DNA of 14,968 nucleotides from a virus (IMGVR_UViG_2529292834_000017); one strand, 5' to 3'. Positions 1 through 14,474 are shown, counted from the first letter of the stretch. The notes: generated by a model from the sequence alone, not told the origin. Numbers and translations are program-made.

Positions 1-1269
1 ATGCCAAAACTCACAGATATGCAGATCCGCGCATGGATAAAGGCGGGAGACAGATTTGATGGCAAGGCAGACGGCAACGGCCTTTATATTTGCTACCCCA
101 AAAACTACACAGTCCCGTTCTGGCGATTCCGATATAAGCTCGCAGGAAAACAGCGGGCTATGGTTATCGGCTCTTACTCCGAACTGTCACTATCAAAAGC
201 CAGAGAAACAGCAAAAGAGCTGTCAGCCAGAGTTGCTCTTGGCTATGACGTAGCAGCAGAAAAACAGGAACGAAAAGCTGAAGCACTGGCAAAAATGGAG
301 GCTGAGAAAAACGCCATGCGCGTTTCAGATCTGGCCGCCGAATACTTCGAGCGACAGATACTTCCGAGATGGAAACATCCCGATATCCTTCGCCGGAGAA
401 TTGATAAGGATATTAACCCCTGCATTGGGCATATGAAGGTAGAGGACGTTAAGCCACGTCACATTGACGACATGTTAAAAGGTATCGTTGACCGAGGAGC
501 ACCAACGATAGCAACAGATGTATTACGCTGGACACGCCGTATCTTTGACTATGGGATAAAACGCCACGCTCTGGAGATAAACCCTTGTTCAGCGTTTGAA
601 GTATCTGATGCTGGTGGTAAAGAGGTTTCCCGCGACCGTTGGCTAACTCGCGATGAGCTTATCAGGCTATTCGAGGCTATGCGCACCGCAAAAGGATTCA
701 GCCGCCAGAACGAACTGACATTTAAGCTATTGCTGGCACTATGCGTTCGTAAGATGGAGTTATGCGCCGCACGATGGGAAGAGTTTGATTTAGATGGTGC
801 GGTATGGCATTTGCCGGAAGAACGCAGCAAAAACGGAGACCCTATTGATATACCTCTACCTTCCCCAGCCGTTGAATGGTTGAGAGAGCTACACACCTTT
901 TCATGTAATAGCGCATGGGTGCTTCCGGCCAGGAAGATGCAAAACAGAATGATCCCACATATTCAGGAAAGCACTTTACCCGTAGCACTGGCTAAGGTTC
1001 GCGCCGAAATGCCGGATGTGCCTAATTTCACGATTCACGACTTCCGACGCACCGCACGTACTCATTTAGCAGCATTGGGTGTTGATCCTGTCGTGGCGGA
1101 ACGATGCCTCAATCATCGCATTAAGGGCGTAGAGGGGATTTATAACCGTCATCAGTATTTTGATGAGCGTAAAGCAGCACTGGCACAGTGGGCAGATCTG
1201 CTGGTGGCACTGGAAAGCGGGAAAGACTACAACGTAACGCCATTCGATAAAGCCCGGAGGCAAATGTGA
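1..1269 (+). CDS. int: Site-specific tyrosine recombinase, P4-type integrase
   Basis: 422-aa ORF starting at base 1. N-terminus (LTDMQIRAW...GNGLYICYPKN...WRFRYKLAGKQRAMVIGSYSELSLSKARE) fits the arm-binding domain pattern of P4-family integrases. C-terminal region carries the recombinase signature: Arg in LLLALCVRKMEL, HDFRRTA (H-x-x-R), LNH, and GIYNRHQY containing the catalytic Tyr. Family assignment from remembered hallmarks, not a database search. Confidence 0.93.
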   Translation: MPKLTDMQIRAWIKAGDRFDGKADGNGLYICYPKNYTVPFWRFRYKLAGKQRAMVIGSYSELSLSKARETAKELSARVALGYDVAAEKQERKAEALAKMEAEKNAMRVSDLAAEYFERQILPRWKHPDILRRRIDKDINPCIGHMKVEDVKPRHIDDMLKGIVDRGAPTIATDVLRWTRRIFDYGIKRHALEINPCSAFEVSDAGGKEVSRDRWLTRDELIRLFEAMRTAKGFSRQNELTFKLLLALCVRKMELCAARWEEFDLDGAVWHLPEERSKNGDPIDIPLPSPAVEWLRELHTFSCNSAWVLPARKMQNRMIPHIQESTLPVALAKVRAEMPDVPNFTIHDFRRTARTHLAALGVDPVVAERCLNHRIKGVEGIYNRHQYFDERKAALAQWADLLVALESGKDYNVTPFDKARRQM

Positions 1270-1916
1270 ACAACATCTTGAGAAAATCGCCAATCGAACG
1301 GCTTTGTTCATCTGTATCGATTACCCCTCATGAAATGGCTGTGGCCTTGGCTGGCCTAAACCCATCTATGCGCATTAGCGATGTGCCTGAGGAAAATTTC
1401 GAATATGTCGATTTTGTCAGAACTCATCTTGCCAGAGCTATCAAGGTGTACAGAGGTGAAAAAACTAGTAAAGATGAGCCTTGCCATGCCCTTGATATTT
1501 TCTTAGCTTCTTACCCATTTATTGACACAAATACACCAGAAATAATTGTTCAGAAAATATCAGAAGCGATTGATGATTTGCGTGGCACCAAGGGCTGGGA
1601 AGAAAAAGCCCGAAACCTTGGAGGACTCCAGTTAGTAAACTACATCAAAGAAACCAACCGCAGCGGACGTGGGCAGCATAGAAAGCAGGATGAGGAAAAC
1701 GGGACAATGAAAATGATGGGGTTGATAGTACATCTGCTGATAAAAAAATCAGGCTCATCTTCCTACATCCAAAATGGGAAACCTAATCGCACAGCTATAT
1801 ACCGTGACATAGAAACCTTAATCAAGGATGAAGGGATATCCCATAAAGGAATAGCAAAAGCCACATTCCTAGAAAAAATCTCACGGGCTTTATTAGCTGT
1901 CCACGATCTCGACTAA
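1266..1916 (+). CDS. Hypothetical protein, translationally coupled to int (unknown function)
   Basis: 216-aa ORF using GTG at 1266, which overlaps the int stop codon (TGA 1267-1269) and is preceded by GGAGG at 1255-1259. First internal ATG is at 1335 (193 aa) but has no SD. Codon usage is noticeably more AT-rich than int. No motif I can recognise. Confidence 0.55.
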   Translation: MNNILRKSPIERLCSSVSITPHEMAVALAGLNPSMRISDVPEENFEYVDFVRTHLARAIKVYRGEKTSKDEPCHALDIFLASYPFIDTNTPEIIVQKISEAIDDLRGTKGWEEKARNLGGLQLVNYIKETNRSGRGQHRKQDEENGTMKMMGLIVHLLIKKSGSSSYIQNGKPNRTAIYRDIETLIKDEGISHKGIAKATFLEKISRALLAVHDLD

Positions 1917-2397: not shown

Positions 2398-2616
2398 ATG
2401 ACAGTACACAAGCCAGCATCATCAGCTATCCCAACAACTGGATACATCCGTCGCTTTCGCATGCCGGAATTGCTAGGTGTTTCACTGCCTACTATTGATA
2501 GATGGGTTAAAAATGGCACTCTTCCACGCCCAGTGAAGCTAACAGATAACGTGACTGCGTTTGATGCGGTGGAAATTAATAACTGGCTGGCAGAACGCCG
2601 CGGGAAGGTGGCCTGA
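2398..2616 (+). CDS. alpA: AlpA-family phage transcriptional regulator (HTH, excisionase-like)
   Basis: 72-aa ORF with SD AGAGAGG upstream. Sequence ...YIRRFRMPELLGVSLPTIDRWVKNGTLPRPVKLTDNVTAFDAVEINNWL... matches the AlpA/prophage CP4-57 regulator HTH pattern. Position directly downstream of a P4-type int is typical. Confidence 0.88.
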   Translation: MTVHKPASSAIPTTGYIRRFRMPELLGVSLPTIDRWVKNGTLPRPVKLTDNVTAFDAVEINNWLAERRGKVA

Positions 2617-3047
2617 TGGAAAAGAAAAACCGCCCATTACAGGCGGCTAATTCAGATATTCGCGTATCTGATATTACGCCCCTTACAAAATCCCTTCAAG
2701 CACCAAAGCGCACACCGAAAAAGCATCGTGCCCGAGTCTATATGCTGCGTACTGGTATAGAGGGATGGACAGAAAATGACATTCTTCGCTACTGCCGTCT
2801 GTCTTCTGGTCGTAACTATGCAACAGAGTTAGAACGCCAGCTTGGAATCACTCTGGAGCGTATCGACGAAAAGAATCCTGATGGTATCGGAACACACCTT
2901 CGCTACCGTTTCTCCTGCCGTGGTGATGTTCTGAAAGTGATCACTCATGTTAACCATCTTGCGAACATAAATGATCACAACGGACTTTCTCAGCAGGAAA
3001 TTGCCGACATTCTGAAACTCTACCCGGACGCGTTTAACGCCGCCTAA
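2616..3047 (+). CDS. Hypothetical protein with basic N-terminus, coupled to alpA
   Basis: 143-aa ORF. Its ATG overlaps the alpA stop (TGATG) and is preceded by GGAAGGTGG. N-terminal basic stretch KRTPKKHRARVYMLRTG. No recognisable catalytic motif. Confidence 0.7.
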   Translation: MEKKNRPLQAANSDIRVSDITPLTKSLQAPKRTPKKHRARVYMLRTGIEGWTENDILRYCRLSSGRNYATELERQLGITLERIDEKNPDGIGTHLRYRFSCRGDVLKVITHVNHLANINDHNGLSQQEIADILKLYPDAFNAA

Positions 3048-3059
3048 CGGAGACTAAAA

Positions 3060-3893
3060 ATGAACATCGAAAAAAGCAGATTAATTTCTGAGGCCGCCCC
3101 TCATCTGAACGCCTCTCTGGGCACAATTAACGGTAATGAATTTGCCGCAATTGTCCCGGTTATTTCTGGTCATATAGGCGGGCGTGAAACCAATATTGTT
3201 AGCGCAAAAGCGTTACACAAAGCGTTGGGCGTGGGAAAAGACTTCTCTACATGGATCACTGATCGCATCTCTGAATATGACTTCACCATTGGGCACGATT
3301 ACTCAGTCCATAAAACAATTTCCCCAAATTTGGGGAAAAGCCCGAATGACGCGGCTTACAGCAAGATTAAGCAGTCTGGCAGACCCGGCAAAGACTATCT
3401 GTTAAGTGTCGGAATGGCGAAAGAACTGGCAATGATCGAACGCAATGATCAGGGTCGCGCTATCCGCCGTTATTTCATCCAGTGCGAGAAAGAATTACAG
3501 CGTAGCGTGCCTGAAATCGCCGCCCGCTATCGTCGCCAGCTAAAAGCCCGTATCAGTGCCGCAAACAACTTCAAGCCAATGTGCGATGCGCTGAATATGG
3601 CCCGTGCCGAGATGGGGAAAACGACGCAGCAACACCACTACACAAACGAGAGCAATATGATTTCTCGTATCGTTCTTGGTGGGCTAACTGCTAAGCAGTG
3701 GGCGCGGATAAATGGCTATTCTGGCGAACCTCGCGACCATATGAACGCAGAACAGCTTGAGCACCTCTCATATCTCGAAAGCACCAATATCACGTTAATT
3801 GATATGGGCATGGAATATGAGCAGCGCAAAGGAGAACTCACCCGCCTGTCGCAACGCTGGCTCGCCAAGCGTCTGGAGGCGGTCCATGTTTAA
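3060..3893 (+). CDS. Phage antirepressor-like protein (AntA/AntB-type N-terminal domain)
   Basis: 277-aa ORF with SD ACGGAG upstream. N-terminal segment IVSAKALHKALGVGKDFSTWITDRISEYDFTIGHDY fits the AntA-type pattern (A..LH..LGV...FS.WI..RI..Y.F.EG.D) as I remember it. Product call is moderate; coding call is good. Confidence 0.75.
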   Translation: MNIEKSRLISEAAPHLNASLGTINGNEFAAIVPVISGHIGGRETNIVSAKALHKALGVGKDFSTWITDRISEYDFTIGHDYSVHKTISPNLGKSPNDAAYSKIKQSGRPGKDYLLSVGMAKELAMIERNDQGRAIRRYFIQCEKELQRSVPEIAARYRRQLKARISAANNFKPMCDALNMARAEMGKTTQQHHYTNESNMISRIVLGGLTAKQWARINGYSGEPRDHMNAEQLEHLSYLESTNITLIDMGMEYEQRKGELTRLSQRWLAKRLEAVHV

Positions 3894-4068
3894 GCCGACA
3901 GGAACACCACAACCTCAAAAACGCTACAAAGATGCCCACGGAGCACTCGTTACTGTCGAAAGCGTGTCTCACAACCGAGTGACGTTTTATCGCGACGGGT
4001 ATCAATCGCCATGCGTACAACCGCTGGCACGTTTCATGAAGGAGTTCGCGGAGGTTAACAAATGCTAA
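3886..4068 (+). CDS. Small hypothetical protein (60 aa), coupled to upstream gene
   Basis: ATG at 3886 overlaps the stop of the upstream gene (ATGTTTAA), the same overlap style as the other junctions in this operon. Protein [60 protein letters not shown]. The ORF track extends to 3799 but that would overlap the upstream gene by 95 nt. Confidence 0.5.
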   Translation: MFKPTGTPQPQKRYKDAHGALVTVESVSHNRVTFYRDGYQSPCVQPLARFMKEFAEVNKC

Positions 4069-5129
4069 CCGCCCAGAAGAAGATATTTTCACTGGCTGGT
4101 ATGTCGCCAAAATCCAGCAATATGACAGCAAAGTCAGACATTAATACAGCAGATACAAGCAAAGTTTATCATTTGCTGGTGGTAGGAGCGGATGCCTTAA
4201 CTATGTCAGAAATTACGGTCGATGGTGTTAGCGTTGAGAAGGTCAGCGGCTATGCCAGAGAATTTCTGGTCGTAGATGGCTTTCTCTGCTCGTGTAGTGA
4301 CTCCACAAAAACCTTCGTCCACGCGCGTGACGTTAACGAAATGAGCGCGATGTACTGTGCTTCTGGTTCTTCCAATAGTGAGTTTTCGGAGTCCATAAAA
4401 AAGAGCTTGCCGTTATGCGGCAACACGGTTTATGGTTATAAGGCACCTCATAAAACGGGTGCCGGGATTGGCGTCCTAAAAATTCTGAAGGCGACATATG
4501 ACGCGCCAAGCGTCTTTTTTTATGTCGTAGGTCTGACTCACCCATTTTTTGGGCGTTGGTGTATAATCCAGCGCCTTTGTCAATCAATGGTGGCTCAGGC
4601 GGGGGCTTCTTCGGAAGCGCCGGTATCCTTCAGAGCCGGTTACGCCAACCCTGTCTGGGCTACCACCAGCGAAATTGGCGTTTCCGGTGGTAGCGTAACC
4701 TGCTATCTGAAGGAGGCTGCCACATGCTGGCTACTACCCCTACCCAAAAAACGCAATTTATCTGGATTATCGCCGCAGTTCGCCGCGATTGCCCGACAAT
4801 TACCGCCAAAATTCATCATATTGCTGCCGAGTCTGAACGCGATGCTCGCCGTTCTCTGGTGCGCGATCACGTCTGCTTTTTTGCTGGTCGTATCCGCATG
4901 GAGGTGGCACATGATTAAAACCTACGATGTGCATATGGATCCCCTCGAACGCACAAGCCAGATCATCACACTGACAGAAGTGATTAACGACATTCTGGTG
5001 AGCAACTCTCCCTCACGAGACGAAAGACTGAAGGCGTTACTCGCGATATTGGATCTCGCCGTTCGTGACGTTCATTTCCTGCTGGAAGGTGGCGAAATGC
5101 CAGTAAAAACGGGGGCAACCAATGAATAA
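4062..5129 (+). CDS. Questionable 355-aa ORF, probably not one gene
   Basis: The first ~145 codons (4062 to ~4500) look protein-like. The ORF then reads through a hairpin+U7 terminator (4500-4521), a perfect TATAAT (4562-4567), a UUCG-tetraloop hairpin and a 9-bp hairpin, and the SD/ATG of a better ORF in another frame (4724). Its last 72 codons coincide with the separate gene 4911-5129. An annotation pipeline could still call it as one hypothetical protein. Confidence 0.3.
4381..4403 (+). promoter_or_regulatory. Copy 1 of conserved promoter-proximal motif AGTTTT-N2-GAGTCCATAAAAAA (putative early-operon promoter element)
   Basis: GAGTCCATAAAAAA at 4389-4402 is identical to 10237-10250 (14/14), with matching AGTTTT upstream in both. 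Followed by a perfect palindrome TTGCCG-N5-CGGCAA (4406-4422) and, about 100 nt downstream, a hairpin terminator. Confidence 0.35.
4500..4521 (+). terminator. Intrinsic terminator-like hairpin in the immunity leader (timm-like)
   Basis: GACGC-GCCAA-GCGTC stem-loop followed by TTTTTTT. Immediately preceded by TCTGAAGG (4484-4491), a seqA-like target complementary to 4628-4635. Confidence 0.45.
4530..4567 (+). promoter_or_regulatory. Sigma70-type promoter with perfect -10 TATAAT (4562-4567), weak -35
   Basis: TGTATAAT at 4560-4567. No good -35 hexamer at 17 bp, so activity is uncertain. Confidence 0.35.
4568..4700 (+). ncRNA. Candidate P4 CI / P1 C4-type antisense immunity RNA region (boundaries approximate)
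   Basis: Non-coding leader with a GCTTC-TTCG-GAAGC tetraloop hairpin (4605-4618) and a 9-bp perfect stem GCTACCACC/GGTGGTAGC (4659-4667 with 4686-4694). TCCTTCAGA at 4627-4635 is perfectly complementary to TCTGAAGGA at 4706-4714, which overlaps the SD (AGGAGG 4711-4716) of the Icd-like gene, and 8/8 complementary to 4484-4491. Family membership would need a covariance-model search. Confidence 0.4.
4724..4918 (+). CDS. Icd/Kil-like small protein (cell-division-inhibitor family of P1 icd / P4 kil position)
   Basis: 64-aa ORF with SD AAGGAGG (4706-4712). Motif [10 protein letters not shown]...[25 protein letters not shown] resembles Icd-like proteins as I remember them. Its stop overlaps the next ATG (ATGATTAA). 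Sits immediately downstream of the antisense-RNA-like leader, as in P1 immI and P4 immunity regions. Confidence 0.55.
   Translation: MLATTPTQKTQFIWIIAAVRRDCPTITAKIHHIAAESERDARRSLVRDHVCFFAGRIRMEVAHD
4911..5129 (+). CDS. Small hypothetical protein (72 aa), translationally coupled
   Basis: ATG at 4911 preceded by GGAGGTG; overlaps the upstream stop and the downstream start (ATGAATAA at 5122). Protein [32 protein letters not shown]... Confidence 0.5.
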   Translation: MIKTYDVHMDPLERTSQIITLTEVINDILVSNSPSRDERLKALLAILDLAVRDVHFLLEGGEMPVKTGATNE

Positions 5130-5316
5130 CTCAATTAATACCCCTCGCCTTACGTCCGCACTTCAATTAATCGAGCAAGCAGCGGCTGTCCTGGTTGCTG
5201 TCAGTCTTTCGGCTGAAGAAATGGACGCTGCTGATGTCGTGGATGCGATTAAAGCGTGCTCATCTTTGGTTAACGATGCCCGTGCAGAGCTGGTAATTCT
5301 TGGTGGTGAAAAATGA
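5122..5316 (+). CDS. Small acidic hypothetical protein (64 aa)
   Basis: SD GGGGGC upstream. Start overlaps the previous stop and the stop overlaps the next start (ATGA at 5313). Acidic, helical-looking sequence. Confidence 0.65.
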   Translation: MNNSINTPRLTSALQLIEQAAAVLVAVSLSAEEMDAADVVDAIKACSSLVNDARAELVILGGEK

Positions 5317-5576
5317 ATATCAACTTAATTTATCGTCATCCGTGTGAGCTGGAAATTGAATCATTGCTGGGGCGCGAAGAGCCATATCCAGACACATTCA
5401 CTCCCGCAGATTGCGCGACTGAACGGCTTACCAGAGCGCGCACAGGTCTGGTTCATGTGATGAATGAGATTATTCCCTCGGTGGGAGGGGAACAGGCGAC
5501 AGTAATCAATAGCTGGCTACAAAAAGTTACCTCCCTGATAGATATCAGTTTAATCGATGTGGAGAGTGCGAAATGA
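5313..5576 (+). CDS. Small hypothetical protein (87 aa)
   Basis: SD GGTGGTGA upstream; ATGA overlaps at both ends (5313 and 5573). Confidence 0.65.
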   Translation: MNINLIYRHPCELEIESLLGREEPYPDTFTPADCATERLTRARTGLVHVMNEIIPSVGGEQATVINSWLQKVTSLIDISLIDVESAK

Positions 5577-5794
5577 CCAACATCCAGCTCATTGAAGCGC
5601 AATGTCGCATCGAACAGGTTCAGACTGTTTTAGGGTTCTGGCTTGAAGGGGCCAGCCCAAGCAACAGAGACAAGTTAATGATTGGCGCGGTTATGTCACT
5701 GCTCAATGGCGTACCAGAAGCTATTCAGGAAGCGGACGAATTGTTGGGCAAATATGAGTTACAGAATCATTCAGGCGAGGCGAAACATGAATAA
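5573..5794 (+). CDS. Small hypothetical protein (73 aa)
   Basis: SD GAGAGTG upstream; the stop overlaps the next gene start (ATGAATAA at 5787). Confidence 0.65.
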   Translation: MTNIQLIEAQCRIEQVQTVLGFWLEGASPSNRDKLMIGAVMSLLNGVPEAIQEADELLGKYELQNHSGEAKHE

Positions 5795-6389
5795 TTTCTT
5801 AACTTTCCATGCAGAAGCAACGCCTGGCGGCGTAAACATCATGTACCGCAGCAACGATGGCATGACAGAACGCGTTGAGGCCGTCTCATATATTGATGCC
5901 GTAAATCGTCTGGATGCCGGGGATTATGACGATAAACCAGATGAAGGTATGTCAATACATCTCGCTATTGCCGATGGCGGCAACCAGGGATATTTCGATT
6001 ACACATCACAGCATAACGTCATTATGTGGAGATGGCTGATCGCAACAGTATTCATGCTGGAAATGAGAGAGGAAAACGGCACCGTCAGCATTATTGATGA
6101 CAGTGGCAATCATTCCGTGGTTTCTGTTTATTCCAATGGCATCGTCGCCATGCCGCTGTATCCAGTAGCAGAGCGCCTCGCTATGGCAAACAACATTGAG
6201 GGCGCAATGATCGAGAAATATGGTGTTGATGTCGGAACAAAGAATGCCATCATTTTTTACAGCAACATGTTCGATGTCGAACAGGGAACACTCACTTCGT
6301 TTGGGCGAGAAGTGCTTGCCGATCTTCACAACAGCTTTATTGCCGAACTAAACGAAAACGGCATCCCAGAAGCACCAGTGACGCACTAA
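5787..6389 (+). CDS. Hypothetical protein (200 aa from ATG 5787)
   Basis: ATG at 5787 with GAGGCG upstream, coupled to the previous gene. The ORF track start at 5682 would overlap the upstream gene in another frame. No recognisable motif. Confidence 0.65.
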   Translation: MNNFLTFHAEATPGGVNIMYRSNDGMTERVEAVSYIDAVNRLDAGDYDDKPDEGMSIHLAIADGGNQGYFDYTSQHNVIMWRWLIATVFMLEMREENGTVSIIDDSGNHSVVSVYSNGIVAMPLYPVAERLAMANNIEGAMIEKYGVDVGTKNAIIFYSNMFDVEQGTLTSFGREVLADLHNSFIAELNENGIPEAPVTH

Positions 6390-6401
6390 ACGGGGGCCAG
6401 A

Positions 6402-8753
6402 ATGCGAAACATTGATCTTATCCGTCAGGTTATCAGTGCGTCTGAAAACAACTGGCCTCATGTGCTGGACTGCCTGAACATAAATGTCCCTGACTCTCCG
6501 CGCCGTCATGCTCCCTGCCCTGCATGTGGGGGCAAAGATCGATTCCGGTTCGATGACAACGGGCGCGGTAGCTTCATCTGTAATCAGTGCGGCGCTGGTG
6601 ATGGGCTGGATTTAATTAAACGCGTAAATAACTGCGACACAACAGAGGCGGCGCTTCTTGCCGCTGATGTTCTGGGTATTGATTACCGGACAACGGAAAC
6701 ACCAGAAGCCACCAGCCAGAAACGGGAACAACTGGAAACCGAGCGCCAGCGACGCGAACAGGAGCGCCTGAAAAGGGCAGAGAAGGACGAACAACAAAGA
6801 CGGGATACGTTTTCCCGTCAGTTTGATGACATGCGCAGAAAGGCTGTAAACGGCAAATCTGATTATCTGGTTGCGAAAGGGGTAGGTGATTTTACATTCC
6901 CTGTGTTGCCCGATGGATCTCTGTTGCTGGCGCTGGTGGATAAATCCGGCGCAGTCACAGCAGCACAGACTATTACCTCACATGGTGAAAAAAGACTCCT
7001 GACAGGTTCAGCAAAGCGAGGGGCATATCACGCCATAAACGCACAGAAACGACCTCACAGCATCATAATTGCTGAGGGGGTGGCTACCGCCCTGTCGTGC
7101 CATTTAATTCGCCCTGACGCAATGACAGTGGCAGCAATCGACGCTGGCAACCTGTTGCCAGTAGCGGAAGTCATGCGCAGAACATATCCACAGGCACAAA
7201 TCATCATTGCCGCAGATAACGATCACCAGCAAGGAAACTCCGAAAGTGGAGGGATCAACACGGGGAAAGATGCCGCAGAGAGGGCCGCTATTTCCGTAGC
7301 TGGCTGGGTGTCTCTGCCACCGACTGACTATAAAGCCGACTGGAACGACTATCACCAACAACACGGGCTGGCGGCAGCCACAGCAGCATTTAAAGATTCG
7401 ATGTACCAGCCACGGGGGAAAGGGGCGCAGGTGAAAAATCACAAACAGTCAGTCGGGGCGCTGAATGAGATCAGTTCTGGCGAGGTGTTAAGCGATGATG
7501 AAATTGCTGTCCTCGAAGAAATCAACCGGACGTTTACGCATGTCACCATCGGCGGGAAACACAAGGTGGTGTCGCTAAAGCCTTCTCAAACCGGCGGTGT
7601 ATCGCACGTTTTCGAGGATTTATCACAATTTCAGCATTATTTTCATCATAAACCGAGAGTCGCCAGAAAGCTGGCGGGATCGGCGTGGCTGTCATGGAGT
7701 GGGAAGAACTACAAGCCAGGAGGCGTAGGATTTTATCCAGTACCAGACAAATGCCCTGACGATGTTTTTAATCTGTATGAGGGGCTGGCACTGGAACCAA
7801 TTGAAGGAGATTGCACGGTATACCTTAATCACCTGTTGCAGGTTGTCTGTGCCGGTAATGAAGAGGCATACCAATATCTTATCCAGTGGATGGCGCACAT
7901 TATCCAAAAGCCTGATGAAAAACCGTCCGTGGCAATCGTGATGAAATCTGTCCCGGGCACAGGGAAAGGCACAACGGTTAAACCGCTGCTGCAAATACTG
8001 GGGCAGTACGCCGCCCACATTAACGGGGCGGGACATATTTCAGGGCGCTTCAATTCAATACTTGCTAACAAGCTACTGGTATTTGCTGACGAAGTGACGA
8101 TCCACAAGCCGTCTGAAGCTGACAGACTTAAAGCGATTATTAGCGAACCGACGTTTAACCTTGAGCGCAAGGGAATTGATGCTGAACCAATGCCGAATTT
8201 TGCCCGGTTGATATTTGCCAGTAACAGCACACAGGTATTACAGGCAGGGATAAGAGAGCGCCGCTATCTCGTGCTTGAGCCATCTCCTGAAAAAGCACAG
8301 AGCCGGGAGTATTTTGATCGGCTGTACAGTTGGCTTAATGATGGCGGTGCCGCAAAGTTGCTTTGGCATCTTAAAGGGGTGGATCTCTCAGGTTTTGACC
8401 CTCAACGAGCGCCACAGACCGATGCCTTACGTGAAGAAATCTTGCTGGGGCTGTCTGGCGTTGAATTGTTTCTTTATGGCGAGCTAATCAATGAACCTCC
8501 GTTTAATGGCGAAGTCCGTTTGTTTGCAAAGGATATGGTTAGTCGATTTGTAGCGTGGTCGCTTGAGCGTGGGGAAAAGCTTAAAGAACCAGCTGCCAGA
8601 TCACTACTGGGTAAATCACTTGCACAAATGGGGCTGGTGAAGCATGGAAGACCAGACCGAGGGAATGGCGTGTTCTACGAACTACCAGAGGTCGGAGTTC
8701 TACAGGCTGCGTTTGCCCGTCTGATCGGTATGGGGGGGTATGATGTTTTTTAA
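6402..8753 (+). CDS. P4 alpha-type bifunctional DNA primase / SF3-like helicase (zinc ribbon + Toprim + D5/P4-family NTPase)
   Basis: 783-aa ORF with SD GGGGGC. N-terminal zinc ribbon CPACGGKDRFRFDDNGRGSFICNQCGAGDGLDLI (CxxC...CxxC), near-diagnostic of P4-alpha-like primases. Toprim-like IIIAEGVATAL and AADNDHQ (DxD). P-loop-like SVPGTGKGTT, Walker B-like LLVFADEV, sensor-like LIFASNS. Size matches P4 alpha (777 aa). Confidence 0.93.
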   Translation: MRNIDLIRQVISASENNWPHVLDCLNINVPDSPRRHAPCPACGGKDRFRFDDNGRGSFICNQCGAGDGLDLIKRVNNCDTTEAALLAADVLGIDYRTTETPEATSQKREQLETERQRREQERLKRAEKDEQQRRDTFSRQFDDMRRKAVNGKSDYLVAKGVGDFTFPVLPDGSLLLALVDKSGAVTAAQTITSHGEKRLLTGSAKRGAYHAINAQKRPHSIIIAEGVATALSCHLIRPDAMTVAAIDAGNLLPVAEVMRRTYPQAQIIIAADNDHQQGNSESGGINTGKDAAERAAISVAGWVSLPPTDYKADWNDYHQQHGLAAATAAFKDSMYQPRGKGAQVKNHKQSVGALNEISSGEVLSDDEIAVLEEINRTFTHVTIGGKHKVVSLKPSQTGGVSHVFEDLSQFQHYFHHKPRVARKLAGSAWLSWSGKNYKPGGVGFYPVPDKCPDDVFNLYEGLALEPIEGDCTVYLNHLLQVVCAGNEEAYQYLIQWMAHIIQKPDEKPSVAIVMKSVPGTGKGTTVKPLLQILGQYAAHINGAGHISGRFNSILANKLLVFADEVTIHKPSEADRLKAIISEPTFNLERKGIDAEPMPNFARLIFASNSTQVLQAGIRERRYLVLEPSPEKAQSREYFDRLYSWLNDGGAAKLLWHLKGVDLSGFDPQRAPQTDALREEILLGLSGVELFLYGELINEPPFNGEVRLFAKDMVSRFVAWSLERGEKLKEPAARSLLGKSLAQMGLVKHGRPDRGNGVFYELPEVGVLQAAFARLIGMGGYDVF

Positions 8754-8844: not shown

Positions 8845-9075
8845 ATGATGAGCACACCATTTTACAAAGTGCGCCAGTTAGCTTCTTCCTCTGGCTGGCA
8901 GCTACGGTTTGAGGGGCGTTCAGACTGGCTACCCATTGCGGCATGGGCGAATGTTGAAATGTGTATTGACGGCGATACCGTTGAAATCATTATTCCCTGC
9001 GTGGCAAGTCGGGACGGCTGTATAGAGCCAACAGATATGGCAGCAGAAATCAGAGAGGTAAAACATGAACAATAA
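8845..9075 (+). CDS. Hypothetical protein (76 aa)
   Basis: SD GAGAGGGAA before the ATG at 8845. Overlaps the next gene by 11 nt. No recognisable motif. Confidence 0.55.
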   Translation: MMSTPFYKVRQLASSSGWQLRFEGRSDWLPIAAWANVEMCIDGDTVEIIIPCVASRDGCIEPTDMAAEIREVKHEQ

Positions 9076-9802
9076 CTATTGCATACTGCAGGGAATGACC
9101 AGAACGGAGCGCGAAGAATTAAAAAGTTTCGCTACACAGTGCGGGAATGCTGGCGACATCCAAAGTCTGGAACGCACTTTAATTATGATTGCGCACTGGA
9201 TGCGCCAGGGGCAAAGAGTTTCATTTACTGAATATGCCAGCCAGTGGACAGAGGCACAGCGCGAACGGAGCGACGGTAATCACTCAACACCCGAAATGGC
9301 GAAGCAATGGCCTTTCAGTGGTAAACGCTGTATCAGTCCCGGTGGTTCAGATTATTACCCTGCTGGTGTGGGAGATGAGCCATGTTGTGACGAGACTGAA
9401 ATCCGCCACGCAGTGACAGTAATTACCGCTGAATACCCACAATTTAACCTTGACGGACTGGCGCTCCACAACCGGAATGCGGACTGGGAAAACCCGCTTG
9501 ATAACCCGTCATTTATCGTATCGGCGAAAAGCTGCCTGAGATGGATCAGAGACAACGGGATGAGTAATGCCCAGATTGAGAGCTTCCCGCAGGATAACCC
9601 CACATCTGACACGTTGAAGCATGAAGTGGAGCGATATAACCAGATAAACCACCAGCACAGTGATCACCCGCACTATATCCCCAACGGAGCATTTATTGCG
9701 GCGATGGTGGCAAGCGGCTACAAGGTTAAGCCAGCGGGAAGAATGAACGCATTTTTCAATATTTCAAAAAAGGGATTATGTGCTGCTATGGGTAAAAATT
9801 AA
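9065..9802 (+). CDS. Hypothetical protein (245 aa), Cys/His-containing
   Basis: SD GAGAGG before the ATG at 9065. Contains CCDETEIRH and HQHSDHPHY segments. No recognisable family. Confidence 0.65.
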   Translation: MNNNYCILQGMTRTEREELKSFATQCGNAGDIQSLERTLIMIAHWMRQGQRVSFTEYASQWTEAQRERSDGNHSTPEMAKQWPFSGKRCISPGGSDYYPAGVGDEPCCDETEIRHAVTVITAEYPQFNLDGLALHNRNADWENPLDNPSFIVSAKSCLRWIRDNGMSNAQIESFPQDNPTSDTLKHEVERYNQINHQHSDHPHYIPNGAFIAAMVASGYKVKPAGRMNAFFNISKKGLCAAMGKN

Positions 9803-10276: not shown

Positions 10277-10309
10277 ATGCCACCAGCTACTGAACGGTGG
10301 CATTTTTTT
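10277..10309 (+). terminator. Rho-independent terminator / attenuator in the leader of the cargo operon
   Basis: 8-bp stem ATGCCACC / GGTGGCAT (10277-10284 with 10296-10303), 11-nt loop, then a run of 6 T. The ORF-track ATG at 10277 lies inside the stem, so the 100-aa ORF 10277-10579 is an over-extension. Confidence 0.55.
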
Positions 10310-10405
10310 GTGCTATTTGTTTCATATTTTGCAATCACAATGATGAATGTTGCGTTTTATGAAACTATAATGACTGTTGTTTTATACAGTTCTAAGGGGG
10401 GCGTT

Positions 10406-10579
10406 ATGGCTATTTCAGTAAAGCCAGTATTGATAAGTGAGAAGCAAATGGAAGCGATAAAGAAAATTCAGGAGGAGCAGCGTAAAAAATCAGAGGTAGG
10501 AGTTGCGCCAACGATCCACGAAATTGCTCGGGGATTAATGGATAAGGCGCTGGCTTACACTTTAACTGGACGTGGGTAA
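10406..10579 (+). CDS. Small hypothetical protein (57 aa), first gene of the cargo operon
   Basis: Strong SD AAGGGGGG 6 nt before the ATG at 10406. Protein MAISVKPVLISEKQMEAIKKIQEEQRKKSEVGVAPTIHEIARGLMDKALAYTLTGRG, charged and helical-looking. Possible small regulator or partner protein; inference only. Confidence 0.6.
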   Translation: MAISVKPVLISEKQMEAIKKIQEEQRKKSEVGVAPTIHEIARGLMDKALAYTLTGRG

Positions 10580-10583
10580 ATTT

Positions 10584-11927
10584 ATGGCTACGTGGCAACA
10601 GGGTATTAATTCTGGTGGTTTTCTGGCTGGCATCGGTGCGCAAAATGAGAATGCGCCAAAGGCAAGCGACATTAACGCAACGCTTGGTCTGATCCGCGAA
10701 AACAATGAACTGGCTCGCTCAGGTGCAAATAACGTTGCTCTGACAGGTCTTCGTGGTCTGGCTGGAGTTGCTGACATTTATAAGCAGCAGCAACAGCAGG
10801 AACGTAAAGCGGCATTCCAGAAAGGTTATGCAGATGCTTATGCGTCCGGTGACAGGGAGCAGATGCGTAATCTTATTACAGCATTCCCAGAAGAGTTTGA
10901 GGAAGTCCGTAAAGGGATGAGTTATGTCGATGATGCTCAAAGGGATGATTATGGCAATCTGGCGCTCAAAGCACAGGTAGCCTCATCGCTTGGTCAGGGC
11001 GCATTTGGCAGGTTCATGATGGATAATGAGCAGGAGATGCGTCGTTTAGGTATCCCTCCAGAAACTATTGCTGAAATGCAGGTTAATGACCCGCAGGGCT
11101 TCCAGCATTTCGCAGGTAATCTGGCGCTGTTTTCTCTCGGTCATGAGAAGTATTTCGATATCAAAGATCAAATGGAAGGTCGTCGACTTGAGCAAGGGCG
11201 ACTGGATGAAAGTATGCGTCAGGCTGACATGGAGAACGCGAGAGGATGGGCAAATATCCAGAACGCTCAACTAGACAGGGCTCAGCGAGCACAAATTCAC
11301 TCAGATGAGATGGGATTGAAGCTAATGGAGCTGGGGCAAAAAGGTAAGCCGTCAGCAGACTTAATTAAGGGATTAAATTCTGACATTACCAATTTTGGCA
11401 AAAATTATAACTCTGTCAGAGCGGCGGCAAACTCTCTGCAAGCCCTTAGCAAGGTAAATACTGGCGCTGCCCAACTTGGGATTATCTTCAACTACATGAA
11501 ATCTCTTGACCCGCAGTCAGTCGTTCGTGAAGGCGAACAGGTTCAGGTAATGCGGTCTGATGGCATATGGGGACAAATCAAAGGATACATAGACCAGCTT
11601 AATGCTGGAAACGGCCTGTCGCAGGAGGCAAAGGATAACATTGTTAACGCCGCAAAAATCAACGCCAATGCTATGGGGCAGCAGTTTAACCAGCAGGTTG
11701 ACGAGTATCTCGATACATATGGAGAAACTATTCCTCAGGGGCTAAGAAAAAGCCTTGAAAGAAGGAAAGCGAAGCTATTTGACGATGTTTCCGGGCAGCC
11801 TACATCACAGGCTGGCACTGGACAGGCAAAAGCGGCAACCGGAGGAATATCAGAAGGCGCAACGGCAACCAACCCTAAAACTGGTCAGAAAATCATTTAC
11901 AGGAACGGAAAATGGCAGCAAATGTAA
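10584..11927 (+). CDS. Hypothetical coiled-coil-rich protein (~448 aa; 451 aa if GTG 10572 is used) with Gly-rich N-terminus
   Basis: Long ORF with coding-like composition. N-terminal Gly/Ala/Asn-rich segment (GINSGGFLAGIGAQNENAPK), then a Q/E/R-rich probable coiled coil (QADMENARGWANIQNAQLDRAQRAQIH). No Walker, nuclease or other catalytic motif seen. Start ambiguous between GTG 10572 (overlapping the upstream stop) and ATG 10584. Confidence 0.8.
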   Translation: MATWQQGINSGGFLAGIGAQNENAPKASDINATLGLIRENNELARSGANNVALTGLRGLAGVADIYKQQQQQERKAAFQKGYADAYASGDREQMRNLITAFPEEFEEVRKGMSYVDDAQRDDYGNLALKAQVASSLGQGAFGRFMMDNEQEMRRLGIPPETIAEMQVNDPQGFQHFAGNLALFSLGHEKYFDIKDQMEGRRLEQGRLDESMRQADMENARGWANIQNAQLDRAQRAQIHSDEMGLKLMELGQKGKPSADLIKGLNSDITNFGKNYNSVRAAANSLQALSKVNTGAAQLGIIFNYMKSLDPQSVVREGEQVQVMRSDGIWGQIKGYIDQLNAGNGLSQEAKDNIVNAAKINANAMGQQFNQQVDEYLDTYGETIPQGLRKSLERRKAKLFDDVSGQPTSQAGTGQAKAATGGISEGATATNPKTGQKIIYRNGKWQQM

Positions 11928-14029
11928 TCTTACCGGAAGGTTTTGTGCTCGATGAACAACCTGATAACTCACAGTTTCCTGATAGTTCACAGCTTCCTGA
12001 TGGTTTTGTGCTTGATGCCCAACCAGAACAGCAGCAATCACCTTTGGTTTCACCAGAGGAAAATTCCAGACAGGAAAATGTTGTTAATAATGCTAACGGT
12101 TTCGACCGTTTTATGTATGGCGTTCTCAGTGGATTGATGGATGTTGGTAAAGGTGTTGGCCTGTTTCAGGATATGACACCAGAAGAGCAAGCCGCAATTC
12201 AGTCTCTACAGCAGAAGTTAGCGGCAAAACCATCAACCGCACAAGATGTTGGTGAGTTCGTTGGACAAGCAGCGCCATTTGTTAGTGGTGGTGGGATTAT
12301 TTCTCAGGTTCCCAAAGGGGCGGCAAGACTGGCTGCCGCCGCAGGGCTTGGTGCTGGAGAAGGGGCTATTGTAGCCAATGGAACAAATAGCGATGTTGCT
12401 TCCGGCGCTGCTATTGGCGCTGTGGCTGGCCCTGTAGCCGAACTTGCTGGCCCTGCAATTAATAAAATAGCTGGGAAATTAACCAAGAAGAATGTTTCTT
12501 CGATTCCAGATATTGAGGGGATTACTCCTGCCGAAGAGAAAATTCGTAAGTTATCTGCACAAGGCAACCCAAATCTTGCCTCTTCGCTTGAAGGGCTAGA
12601 TCTAAAACCTCAGAAAGAAATTGTTGAGGCTGCAAATAGGCTTCATGTTGATTCAGTTCTTCCTTCTCATTTATCAGGAAATGAGCAATACCAAGCTGTA
12701 GAGCAAGCCCTAAAGTCACGGACAGGATCAGCGTTAAAAGCTCAAGAAGATAAAGCAATAAGCGAATTAGCCTCTAGTGCTGGCAAGATAATCGATGATG
12801 TTGCTGGTGCGCCAGATGCGTTAGCTATGAGCGAAAAATATATTTATCAGATAAATAGTAGAATGGAAGCACTAAAAAACCGTAGTGATCAGTTATATAA
12901 ACGTGTTGATTCCGCTCTATCACCAAGAACAAAAGTCGAAGCAAATAACACAAGCACTATGCTGGAAAAAATCGCTGATGATTTAGGAGGGTGGGATAAT
13001 CTTGACCCAATAGAAAAGCGAGTTTTTACAGCAATAAACCCCGGCCCAGATAGCATCCTAACGTATGCAAATTTAAACAGGCAAAGGCGTTTAGTTGGTG
13101 ATGCCCTAAATAAAAAGCAGGGGCCATACAAAGATGCTGATAAAGAAGCGCTATCAAGACTATATGGAGCTTTAGCTGAAGACCAAAAATCTGTCTTATC
13201 CAATACTGGATACTTGCGAGATTTCGAAGTCGCACAACGCCTTGTAGCTATGAGAAAAAACTTAGAAAGGCAAATGGTAAATCTTCGCGGGAAAACACTT
13301 AATGGGGATATAGCGTATAAAGTAACGAATTCTCTTCAATCTATGGCAAAAGGTGATGCGAGAGGGTTTCGTGAGATTATGCAAAATACTCCATCAAGAA
13401 CATTGCGAAGGGAGCTAGTAGGAACAGCATTAAGAGATATGCTTTCCTCTGGGAAGCGTGGGGCCGACTTTAATCCATCTGGCTTCGCAGATTGGTGGCA
13501 AAACTTGCAACACAGTGGACAGCTAAAGACTTTGGCTGAACATTTGCCAAAAGAAACAATGAGCGGACTATATGATGTATACAAAGTTGCCAGAGCAATA
13601 AAAAATGCTAAAGCGCATGAAATATCTACTGGTAAGCTGAATGAGTTTGTAAACAGATTTAATCGGGTAACAGCTCCATACGAACTAGCAGCAAAACACA
13701 TTCAAAAAATAGGCACGATGGTAGGCGCTCATTTTGGATCGCTTGGAGCCATTGCTGGGGCTGATATTGGAGCAAGATTGGCGAGTAAAGCTCGATTAGC
13801 TGGTGGAGCAGGGGCGGCTGATGCTGCGGATAAATTAATTGCCTCGCCAGCCTTCCAGAGCGCAGTAAAAAATCTACACGGAAAAGCGCCTGGGCACATT
13901 GTTGATTCACGTATCAGGCGCTCCCCTCAATGGAAGAGTTTTTTTAACTCTCTTCCTGAACAGGAAAAACGGACCATCGCCAGACTGGGCATCATTACTT
14001 GGCTATCTAATGATCCAGATAATGACTAG
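11912..14029 (+). CDS. Hypothetical 705-aa protein with N-terminal tandem repeat and Gly/Ala-rich amphipathic segments
   Basis: ATG at 11912 with AGGAA 6 nt upstream; overlaps the end of the upstream gene by 16 nt. N-terminus has a tandem repeat LPEGFVLDEQP / LPDGFVLDAQP. Gly/Ala-rich stretches at residues ~125-180 (AARLAAAAGLGAGEGAIVANG...AIGAVAGPVAELAGPAINKIAGKL) and near the C-terminus (GSLGAIAGADIGARLASKARLAGGAGAADAADKLIASPA). No enzymatic motif recognised. GC content drops sharply after ~12500. Confidence 0.85.
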   Translation: MAANVILPEGFVLDEQPDNSQFPDSSQLPDGFVLDAQPEQQQSPLVSPEENSRQENVVNNANGFDRFMYGVLSGLMDVGKGVGLFQDMTPEEQAAIQSLQQKLAAKPSTAQDVGEFVGQAAPFVSGGGIISQVPKGAARLAAAAGLGAGEGAIVANGTNSDVASGAAIGAVAGPVAELAGPAINKIAGKLTKKNVSSIPDIEGITPAEEKIRKLSAQGNPNLASSLEGLDLKPQKEIVEAANRLHVDSVLPSHLSGNEQYQAVEQALKSRTGSALKAQEDKAISELASSAGKIIDDVAGAPDALAMSEKYIYQINSRMEALKNRSDQLYKRVDSALSPRTKVEANNTSTMLEKIADDLGGWDNLDPIEKRVFTAINPGPDSILTYANLNRQRRLVGDALNKKQGPYKDADKEALSRLYGALAEDQKSVLSNTGYLRDFEVAQRLVAMRKNLERQMVNLRGKTLNGDIAYKVTNSLQSMAKGDARGFREIMQNTPSRTLRRELVGTALRDMLSSGKRGADFNPSGFADWWQNLQHSGQLKTLAEHLPKETMSGLYDVYKVARAIKNAKAHEISTGKLNEFVNRFNRVTAPYELAAKHIQKIGTMVGAHFGSLGAIAGADIGARLASKARLAGGAGAADAADKLIASPAFQSAVKNLHGKAPGHIVDSRIRRSPQWKSFFNSLPEQEKRTIARLGIITWLSNDPDND

Positions 14030-14048: not shown

Positions 14049-14474
14049 TCAATCTTTATTCTTTGAAATAGAGTCATTGATCTTTTCGAAACACCAATGA
14101 AATCCACAAAAGAGAGCTACACCAATATAACAATACAAAACTATCAACCACCTTTCAGTGTCCGAAGGGTAAAAAACATCAATTACATAAGCAACACCAA
14201 TTGGTATTAATGCTAGTAATAACATCGACACAGGACGTACAAACTTCTGAACTATATCAATTTTATAGAACCACAAGGCGGTATGTTTAATGATATAAGT
14301 AAAGATGGCTGCGCCAATAATGGCAAAAAACACCATCGATAAAGTCGGGTATAACTTTGCGACAATTAAACCCAACAAAATAATTATAACTGCCTGCCCC
14401 CTCACACCAACCCTCCCTTTAGCTTTGTTTAGAATGGCAATCATCATATATCCAAGACATGGCATTTGGTACAT
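14049..14474 (-). CDS. Small integral membrane protein (141 aa, ~4 predicted TM helices), low GC
   Basis: Minus-strand ORF convergent with the 705-aa gene. Hydrophobic stretches VIIILLGLIVAKLYPTLSMVFFAIIGAAIFTYII, VSMLLLALIPIGVAYVIDVF and LIVLYCYIGVALFCGF. Very AT-rich codon usage. No clear SD at any of the candidate starts (14474, 14465, 14447). Confidence 0.65.
   Translation of the reverse strand: MYQMPCLGYMMIAILNKAKGRVGVRGQAVIIILLGLIVAKLYPTLSMVFFAIIGAAIFTYIIKHTALWFYKIDIVQKFVRPVSMLLLALIPIGVAYVIDVFYPSDTERWLIVLYCYIGVALFCGFHWCFEKINDSISKNKD

Follow-up and report, generated by a model that had tools for sequence, protein, structure and literature searches.

A chain of five overlapping genes behind an RNA immunity leader

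The viral sequence IMGVR_UViG_2529292834_000017, a stretch of 14,968 nucleotides (nt) called here the window, contains a chain of five small overlapping genes, g1 to g5, located between an Icd-like gene, the equivalent of P4 kil, and a primase-helicase gene (Table 1). A sequence-only reading had delineated these open reading frames (ORFs) and regarded them as a likely helper-manipulation module. Our analysis confirms that the five genes are real and coding, with the coordinates first proposed. Six loci with 92–98% identity show zero indels across 4010–6389, and in this comparison the annotated frame has the largest synonymous share for each gene. The ratio of synonymous to non-synonymous changes is 5:5 in frame for g1 (0:10 and 1:9 in the other frames), 4:3 for g2 (1:6 and 2:5), 6:9 for g3 (4:12 and 3:14), 3:0 for g4 (0:3 and 0:3) and 30:36 for g5 (13:58 and 6:62). 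By tblastn, Enterobacter homologues are detected for g3 (53% amino acid identity, E 2e-31), g4 (43%, E 4e-15) and g5 (60%, E 6e-83), and Kosakonia and Cedecea each have g5 together with one of g3 (54%) or a g4-like gene (44–48%). The coding evidence is thinner for g1 and g2 because their relatives are all close (at least 94% identity).

As the earlier reading held, the junctions of the chain are suited to translational coupling. The icd stop and the g1 start overlap by 8 nt (ATGATTAA, 4911–4918), g1/g2 and g4/g5 share a second 8-nt overlap (ATGAATAA, at 5122–5129 and 5787–5794), and g2/g3 and g3/g4 overlap by the 4 nt of ATGA (5313–5316 and 5573–5576). A Shine-Dalgarno sequence (GGAGG, GAGG, GGAG, GGTGG or GGGGG) is found 7–12 nt before each start, inside the preceding gene. 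The primase does not overlap g5 and starts after a 12-nt gap (6389 to 6402). The claim of an ATGA or ATG-N2-TAA overlap at every junction from 4724 onwards thus stands from 4911 to 5794 and fails for 4724, which is not the same kind of gene-gene overlap because the icd start falls inside a 355-codon ORF.

The complete chain, at 80% coverage or more, is present in 485 of 5426 complete E. coli genomes (about 9%), including enterotoxigenic (ETEC) and O111 strains. RefSeq usually annotates four of the five genes, as hypothetical, and mostly leaves g1 out; g1 is called in AH19B041, a recent record with a newer annotation by the Prokaryotic Genome Annotation Pipeline (PGAP).

The placement of the chain behind an immunity leader of the P4/P1 type is borne out by the Rfam matches to isrK and C4 (Table 1). 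The isrK element holds an upstream target copy, the seqA-like TCTGAAGG (4484–4491), and a terminator scan predicts an intrinsic terminator in it at 4500–4514 plus a T run. The second hairpin loop of the C4/CI RNA (4625–4635, AUCCUUCAGAG) is complementary to UCUGAAGGA at 4706–4714, overlapping the icd Shine-Dalgarno, and also to UCUGAAGG at 4484–4491 within isrK. Window-wide, the 8-mer TCTGAAGG occurs solely at 4484 and 4706, both on the plus strand, with its complement at 4627–4634. The Icd-like gene is the first translated gene after the leader, and its product is 41% identical to the C-terminal part of the P4 'cI ORF'.

We compared the leader elements of the window, eleven related loci (designated by L numbers) and P4. 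Nine loop types were found (window, L003/L014, L004, L005, L007/L010, L009, L011, L013 and P4, whose seqB/seqC pair is one of the nine), and for each of them an 8–10 nt complement abuts GGAGGCTGCC-N2-3-ATG of the icd-like gene, usually with a copy in isrK too. The leader is also the most variable stretch among the 92–98% identical islands, with 34% variable sites and no codon bias. This covariation is strong comparative evidence for control by the immunity RNA over the ribosome site of the gene that heads the chain.

The leader is spanned by the 355-codon ORF (4062–5129), which PGAP names 'ash family protein' and which is uninterrupted in six of six relatives (92–98% identity) despite the variability of the leader. 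This ORF corresponds to P4 eta. The antirepressor gene upstream overlaps the DUF4222 gene by 8 nt and the DUF4222 stop overlaps the start of the Ash/eta-like ORF (ATGCTAA), so the coupling chain seems to start well 5' of the leader. According to PMC10111431, eta is coupled to its upstream gene, its translation lets late transcripts pass the immunity terminator, and Kil is a truncated Eta in the same frame. Agreement in frame between the long ORF and the Icd-like part is seen in P4 and in seven relatives, among them L004, L005, L007 and L009–L011. The window lineage has 1 nt fewer before the icd ATG (GCC-AC-ATG versus GCC-NNN-ATG, junction 4717–4726); the long ORF therefore crosses icd in a different frame, shares the frame of g1 and terminates at the stop of that gene. 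The g1 product may thus be both a 72-aa protein and the tail of a 355-aa protein. When icd is read in the +1 frame, most relatives show a stop at codon 14; this frame is open in the window, L010 and P4, where it continues into eps.

Table 1. Features of the window; positions are counted from its first nucleotide (aa, amino acids; pI, isoelectric point)
Feature	Position	Strand	Evidence and remarks
Tyrosine integrase	1–1269	+	integrase domains
Gene of no assigned function	1266–1916	+	
AlpA-type regulator	2398–2616	+	Phage_AlpA E 6e-6
143-aa gene	2616–3047	+	
AntA/AntB-type antirepressor	3060–3893	+	Pfam AntA E 1.2e-21; PHROG Ant families, E down to 5e-39
DUF4222 gene	3886–4068	+	Pfam DUF4222 E 6e-25
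355-codon Ash/eta-like ORF	4062–5129	+	residues 124–232, Pfam Phage_ASH E 5.9e-34; spans RNA leader
isrK-type leader RNA	4443–4520	+	Rfam RF01394, 60.5 bits
C4/CI-type antisense immunity RNA	4583–4670	+	Rfam RF01695, 79.9 bits, E 1e-14
Target of immunity RNA loop (UCUGAAGGA)	4706–4716	+	overlaps icd Shine-Dalgarno AAGGAGG
Icd-like gene, P4 Kil equivalent	4724–4918	+	NCBIfam NF033153 E 3.9e-20
g1	4911–5129	+	72 aa, pI 4.8; lineage-restricted orphan
g2	5122–5316	+	64 aa, pI 4.2; lineage-restricted orphan
g3	5313–5576	+	87 aa, pI 4.7; narrow enterobacterial family
g4	5573–5794	+	73 aa, pI 4.7; family in related islands, sometimes duplicated; phrog_20558 E 2.9e-9
g5	5787–6389	+	200 aa, pI 4.35, net charge -19; phrog_1515 E 3.6e-47
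Primase-helicase, last operon gene	6402–8753	+	Pfam Zn ribbon, Toprim and DUF5906
Two genes of no assigned function (d1, d2)	8845–9802	+	
P22-like injectosome (ejection) genes, late zone	10572–14029	+	Pfam Inj_translocase E 2.5e-73; phrog_917, phrog_6704, phrog_770
Predicted 141-aa membrane protein	14049–14474	-	directly after ejection genes

A variable slot and its protein families

Between icd and the primase, the slot is occupied by an array of cassettes, with 1–6 genes in relatives. After icd, L004 has g3, g4 and g5; L005 and L007 have g3, a new 66-aa gene and g5, with or without a 113-aa gene; and the Cedecea locus L006 has a 61-aa gene, two g4-like genes, genes of 81 and 69 aa, g5 and a 116-aa gene. 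Other islands encode series of 65, 49, 73, 208 and 113 aa (0H18), 104, 87, 208 and 113 aa (ET979), 59, 87 and 208 aa (SCU-308) or 59, 104, 87, 208 and 113 aa (30COLEC), and YPE12 has one 68-aa in-frame chimera and the 113-aa gene, without g5. The joints of the cassettes are stereotyped (GAGG-N6-7-ATGA), which means that each cassette ends in codons for Glu-x-x-Ala/Lys-stop that also serve as the ribosome site of the following gene. Earlier work on P4-like elements described variable families in the stretch from epsilon to alpha (PMC8628076).

The exchange also concerns the primase side. Islands that share a 95–98% identical chain join it to differing primases, with or without 113-/123-aa genes, and the recombination joint lies exactly at the g5 stop; the primase C-terminus is of the DUF5906 type in the window and of the DUF927 type elsewhere. 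The 113-aa gene (phrog_37628), and sometimes a 123-aa gene, stands between g5 and the primase in many islands (L003 7614–8319, with equivalents in L012–L014, L020 and L021); the window has neither, and comparison of the two genes shows a weak similarity (BLASTP E 0.001, hhalign P 0.0025). In-frame deletion chimeras were also seen, namely a g1-g2 fusion (P0152) and, in YPE12, a 59-aa cassette fused with g3 (L018 3203–3409). Recombination may take place at the joints or at internal similarities. Some cassettes carry spurious RefSeq names that are spreading through records (L010 1701–2275, L019 1876–2450): a 104-aa cassette protein is called 'ubiquinol-cytochrome C reductase' and an 87-aa protein of the g3 family 'nicotinic acetylcholine receptor subunit beta'.

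Each of the five chain proteins is acidic, with net charges from -5 to -19 (pI values in Table 1), and none has a meaningful match in Pfam, NCBIfam, PADLOC or PDB sequence searches, the last giving no match for g5 or g2. Diverged relatives of g1 and g2 are absent among 5.8 billion proteins; apparent 'divergent' homologues (P0148, P0151, P0156, P0164, P0166, P0168 and P0173) proved to be gene predictions with a frameshift or a fusion. The g3 family has 24 representatives among 1.84 billion proteins, and about half of the substitutions in g1, g2 and g3 are non-synonymous. For g4, a tblastn search of 50,697 phage records found nothing. We also considered whether a single two-helix unit had diverged into g1, g2, g4 and the g3 C-terminal half as paralogues, and the similarities were not significant (BLASTP E 0.004 for g2 versus L006_6568 and E 0.03 for g2 versus a g4-family member; best hhalign P 0.003–0.004 among 36 comparisons).

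The g3 AlphaFold model consists of a short helix and a long antiparallel helical hairpin, with a predicted local distance difference test (pLDDT) score of 85. Its closest folds, an uncharacterised podovirus protein (E 0.21) and the DksA coiled coil (E 0.55), are uninformative. A match of g3 to the designed Kelch-repeat protein 7ong_A in the PDB (E 4e-7) contains zero stretches that pass alone and is probably a repeat artefact, as is probably a 1196-aa repeat protein among the matches of the exhaustive g3 search.

The g5 family is of a different kind, comprising 471 clusters, every one called 'hypothetical'. It is found in most related islands, and full-length homologues with 31–38% identity occur in autonomous temperate phages (phiP27, Stx phages, Klebsiella prophage-derived phages and phi467). 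phiP27 and KPP5665-2 carry theirs in the early-left operon, with the repressor on one side and xis/int on the other. A homologue of the 65-aa 0H18 cassette (E 2e-16) is likewise encoded in the early-left operon of Klebsiella phage KPP5665-2. Window g5 has no Pfam match at E<=0.1. Its C-terminal ~55 aa are weakly similar to P4 ORF106/DUF5375: the same residues of the family are aligned by phmmer (E 0.009) and hhalign (P 0.01 and 0.004), phrog_5991 matches weakly (E 0.027 for the window protein, 0.0012 for relatives), and a precomputed PF17345 match is recorded on the family members P0053 and P0055. ORF106 is presumably Cnr, a copy-number regulator acting on alpha.

Readings of the chain

We favour the view that the chain is an immunity-gated array of accessory cassettes in the early operon of a satellite of the Gram-negative phage-inducible chromosomal island (PICI)/P4 family, and give it a probability of roughly 50%. 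The operon runs from the Ash/eta-like ORF with its embedded RNAs through kil/icd and g1–g5 to the primase. In the resting island, the immunity RNA would block icd translation and let transcription terminate, as it does in P4 and P1, and the block from icd to the primase would be silent. Switch-on would follow from derepression, or from transcription that enters from the alpA/antA side while the eta-like ORF is being translated. Ribosomes would then descend the chain by termination-reinitiation, and the output of g1–g5, Kil/Icd and the primase would stand in a fixed ratio. With lower confidence, we suggest that g1–g4 are exchangeable early accessory proteins that bind a partner in the conflict between satellite, phage and host, being neither core life-cycle functions nor Eps homologues. 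On its distribution, g5 would be a broadly distributed phage early-operon protein, the tail of which may be related to P4 ORF106 (Cnr). Our confidence in any specific protein target is much less than that in the operon frame.

Several points weigh against this account. The coupling, the Rho-dependent polarity and the role of eta-like translation are inferred from the precedent of P4 and P1. The protein models offer little help: the best Foldseek matches of the g3 model against PDB and BFVD have E >= 0.2 and are generic helical hairpins, and the g5 model, built from 29 sequences, is poor (pLDDT 51). The g5/Cnr similarity is weak, with E or P between 0.001 and 0.03 in five tests and below the Pfam threshold. 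Finally, the association of g1 and g2 with P22-like late genes suggests that these two genes are possibly more helper-specific than 'generic accessory' implies.

That association is as follows. The four intact islands with g1/g2 (window/FORC_031, Nord122, MOD1-EC7003 and MP1) all carry P22-like head-completion or ejection genes, and none of six islands without g1/g2 does (0H18, SCU-308, 30COLEC, L004, L005 and L007), which gives a Fisher exact p of 1/210, uncorrected for shared ancestry. Ejection genes of the gp7, gp20 and gp16 types and a head gene of the gp14 type are represented among the P22-like genes; the gp14-like and gp7-like ones occur in the relatives, whose P22-like genes are found at L003 11825–14378, L020 14912–19678 and L022 14203–17954. 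What the six islands lacking g1/g2 carry in the same zone is an SSB gene, an activator gene (PerC-type or other) or nothing but unassigned genes. The g1/g2 islands otherwise differ, with integrases that are 29% identical, attachment at yicC versus tRNA-Thr and different primase C-termini, and their gp20-like (ej20) proteins share 25–57% identity. This tracking of g1/g2 by P22-like genes is the strongest argument that the two genes have some helper-linked role. A further reading, which we consider unlikely, is that g1–g2 and the linked g3–g5 alleles form a previously unrecognised satellite early family specific for P22-like helpers. The set would be exchanged as a unit, with stereotyped Shine-Dalgarno/ATGA joints, and would travel with the captured injectosome genes; its acidic proteins (helical in the one confident model, that of g3) would bind helper or invader proteins and so hijack the helper or trigger Kil/Icd arrest, and the slot would be a programmable, RNA-gated 'sensor/effector' array. 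The same late zone points to P22-like phages, and the earlier reading was for this reason too pessimistic in holding that the sequence does not disclose the helper: P22-like phages such as Kapi1 are the likely helper, judging from gene content.

Among the rival explanations, the best placed, unlikely by a small step more, is that the chain and Icd/Kil form an abortive-infection or superinfection-exclusion device, in which the small proteins sense an invading phage protein or relay its presence and the Icd-like protein stops the cell. In E. coli ECOR61, a prophage-encoded cell-death locus of six genes, comprising an Icd-like gene, linked small genes and a DNA primase, is reported to cause growth arrest upon expression of the T7-group accessory gene orf24, suppressor transposon insertions fall in the Icd-like gene and the next two overlapping genes (186 and 192 nt), and the effect is lost once the Icd-like gene is removed (Silas et al., bioRxiv 10.1101/2023.04.06.535777). 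From its published coordinates, the overlap between icd and the next gene is also 8 nt in ECOR61, and the high cassette turnover and large non-synonymous share in our islands would fit an arms race. However, the likeness to ECOR61 is one of architecture only, with small genes of 61 and 63 aa versus 72 and 64 aa for g1 and g2, and the ECOR61 insertions do not separate the genes because transposon insertions are polar in a coupled operon. The PADLOC models gave only two weak CARF-model matches, both CARF3 on g2 (E ~0.008, 14 bits), which we judged to be noise.

Unlikelier by a little is the proposal of the sequence-only reading, a helper-manipulation module in which g2, or alternatively g1, acts like P4 epsilon and inactivates the repressor of a helper prophage. 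The equivalent slot of P4 does hold eps and orf151, as that reading stated, the P4 order being kil/eta, eps, orf151, orf106 and alpha. Expression of the chain would be confined to the time after satellite derepression, and the chain is present in E. coli MP1, which hosts the P22-like phage Kapi1. The exact position of eps is nevertheless that of g1, which overlaps the icd stop by 8 nt as eps overlaps the kil/eta stop in P4, and not that of g2 (5122–5316), for which the epsilon-like role had been put forward. The comparison with P4 Eps that the earlier reading called for revealed no similarity: BLASTP gave no alignment of g2 at E<=100, none of g1–g5 matched the Eps PHROG families (phrog_10016/3688) at E<=0.1, hhalign P was 0.26–0.92 for g1, g2 and the g3 and g4 families, and g5 had no BLASTP match to orf151. 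P4 Eps is a basic protein of 95 aa (pI 9.25, charge +3), opposite in charge to g2, and acidity does not single out g2 because all five chain proteins are acidic.

Other features of the islands also speak against a dedicated module. Members of the g3–g5 families are also found where P22-like late genes are lacking, and g5 in autonomous phages, which have no helper; the slot content varies between close relatives; and all these islands already encode an AntA/AntB antirepressor upstream. In Gram-negative PICIs, according to PMC10111431, it is the helper that induces the island and not the reverse. The P22-like association is itself confounded by shared ancestry, and Cedecea L006, which lacks g1/g2, has a homologue of the small gene preceding the ejection genes, a possible counter-example. 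Overall, the helper-manipulation idea is partly supported: the position and the leader hold, the link of g1/g2 to P22-like genes speaks for some helper-linked role, and the likeness to Eps fails.

Less probable again, and clearly unlikely, is that the chain, or at least g5, is a replication accessory, with a Cnr-like regulator and its partners tuning the primase-helicase or the origin. In islands, g5 or the 113-aa gene is invariably directly 5' of the primase, the g5-family C-terminus aligns with ORF106/DUF5375 over the same ~55 residues in several tests, and 90% of P4-like elements have a member of the cnr family in the interval from epsilon to alpha (PMC8628076). These scores are all sub-threshold, however, the same chain is joined to primases with DUF5906 or DUF927 exactly at the g5 stop, the g5 homologues of phiP27 and KPP5665-2 are not adjacent to a primase, and YPE12 does without g5. 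We see very little chance that some ORFs, g1 above all, are not independent and represent the tail of the Ash/eta-like ORF or a chance ORF: g1 is missing from most annotations, shares the frame of the long ORF and has no diverged homologues, but it has the canonical joint (GGAGGTGGCAC-ATG) used by other cassettes after icd, its synonymous enrichment is confined to its own frame, and newer PGAP annotation calls it.

This island type is common, all five proteins are annotated as hypothetical only, and the frame of RNA switch, kil/icd, coupled chain and primase makes a testable unit out of what was a list of orphans. According to how such tests turn out, the cassettes may yield helper-hijack, phage-sensing/exclusion or counter-defence proteins, and the covariation with the P22-type injectosome provides a concrete candidate helper in Kapi1-like phages, with E. 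coli MP1 as host. The regulatory frame is already known from the P4 left operon, P1 immI and the PICI plan, and the five proteins are uncharacterised; the array organisation, the covariation, the eta-like frame shift and the P22-type link are useful leads and not established novelties.

The island and its relation to known systems

All listed genes of the window from the integrase through the ejection genes are on the plus strand. The window is 100% identical to the chromosome of ETEC strain FORC_031 across the 2.1 kb tested; the island there adjoins yicC, and no att direct repeats of at least 12 nt were found around it in FORC_031. An AT-rich gap (1916–2398, GC content 0.34) separates the integration genes from alpA. 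The Rfam int-alpA RNA (RF02996) lies just 5' of the alpA-like gene in L003 and L005–L007, and the window has no match at the gathering threshold. The AntA/AntB protein is the sole recognisable antirepressor of the island and sits upstream of the RNA leader; it is the obvious candidate to act on a helper repressor.

The N-terminal 335 aa of the primase share 33% identity with P4 alpha (E 9e-41), and of the core set given for P4-like satellites (int, alpA, an eps marker, alpha, sid, delta and psu; PMC8628076) the window has int, alpA, the Phage_ASH marker and the alpha-type primase. Among the ORFs 3' of the primase, no Pfam, PHROG or NCBIfam match to the sid, delta or psu types was found. The P22-like injectosome genes of the late zone (10277–14029) show 88% nucleotide identity to phage Kapi1 and look like late genes captured from a helper. 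In FORC_031, the gp16-like gene is interrupted by IS3 and group II intron insertions. The 141-aa membrane protein encoded after the ejection genes has a sub-threshold similarity to Bax1-I (E 4.4e-5, 23.8 bits for a cut-off of 34.1).

With the P4 left (PLE/PLL) operon, the window shares a long Ash/eta ORF enclosing isrK/seqA and the CI/C4 RNA, followed by a Kil/Icd-like gene, small genes with 8-nt overlaps and an alpha-like primase. P4 has three genes in the slot where the window has five, and g1–g5 are not homologues of eps or orf151. The window further differs from P4 by an eta-like ORF that is out of frame with icd, a primase C-terminus of the DUF5906 type and the lack of psu, sid and delta genes.

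The Gram-negative PICI plan described in PMC10111431 consists of integration genes, a Bro zone with immunity RNAs and eta, replication genes and a late zone with captured helper genes. The window follows this four-zone order in one direction, with int and alpA, then AntA, DUF4222 and Ash/eta with C4 and isrK, then the DUF5906 primase and the late zone. Its late genes are of the P22 injectosome type and not capsid genes, and the available part of that paper gives no account of small genes between the immunity RNA and the primase.

In two phage early-left (PL-type) operons, those of phiP27 and KPP5665-2, g5 homologues stand among runs of small overlapping genes as in the window, without an RNA immunity leader, icd or an adjacent primase. 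The ECOR61 locus, by its published coordinates, combines an Icd-like gene, overlapping genes of ~60 aa and a primase in one block; its Icd-like protein has an N-terminal extension (in-frame eta) that the window protein lacks. In the immI region of P1 and P7 (c4 RNA, icd and ant), the genes downstream are translationally coupled to icd, and in P1 the coupled gene encodes the antirepressor Ant. The window resembles immI in that a C4-family RNA loop pairs with an icd-like ribosome site, and departs from it in that nothing Ant-like lies downstream, the AntA/AntB antirepressor being encoded upstream of the leader.

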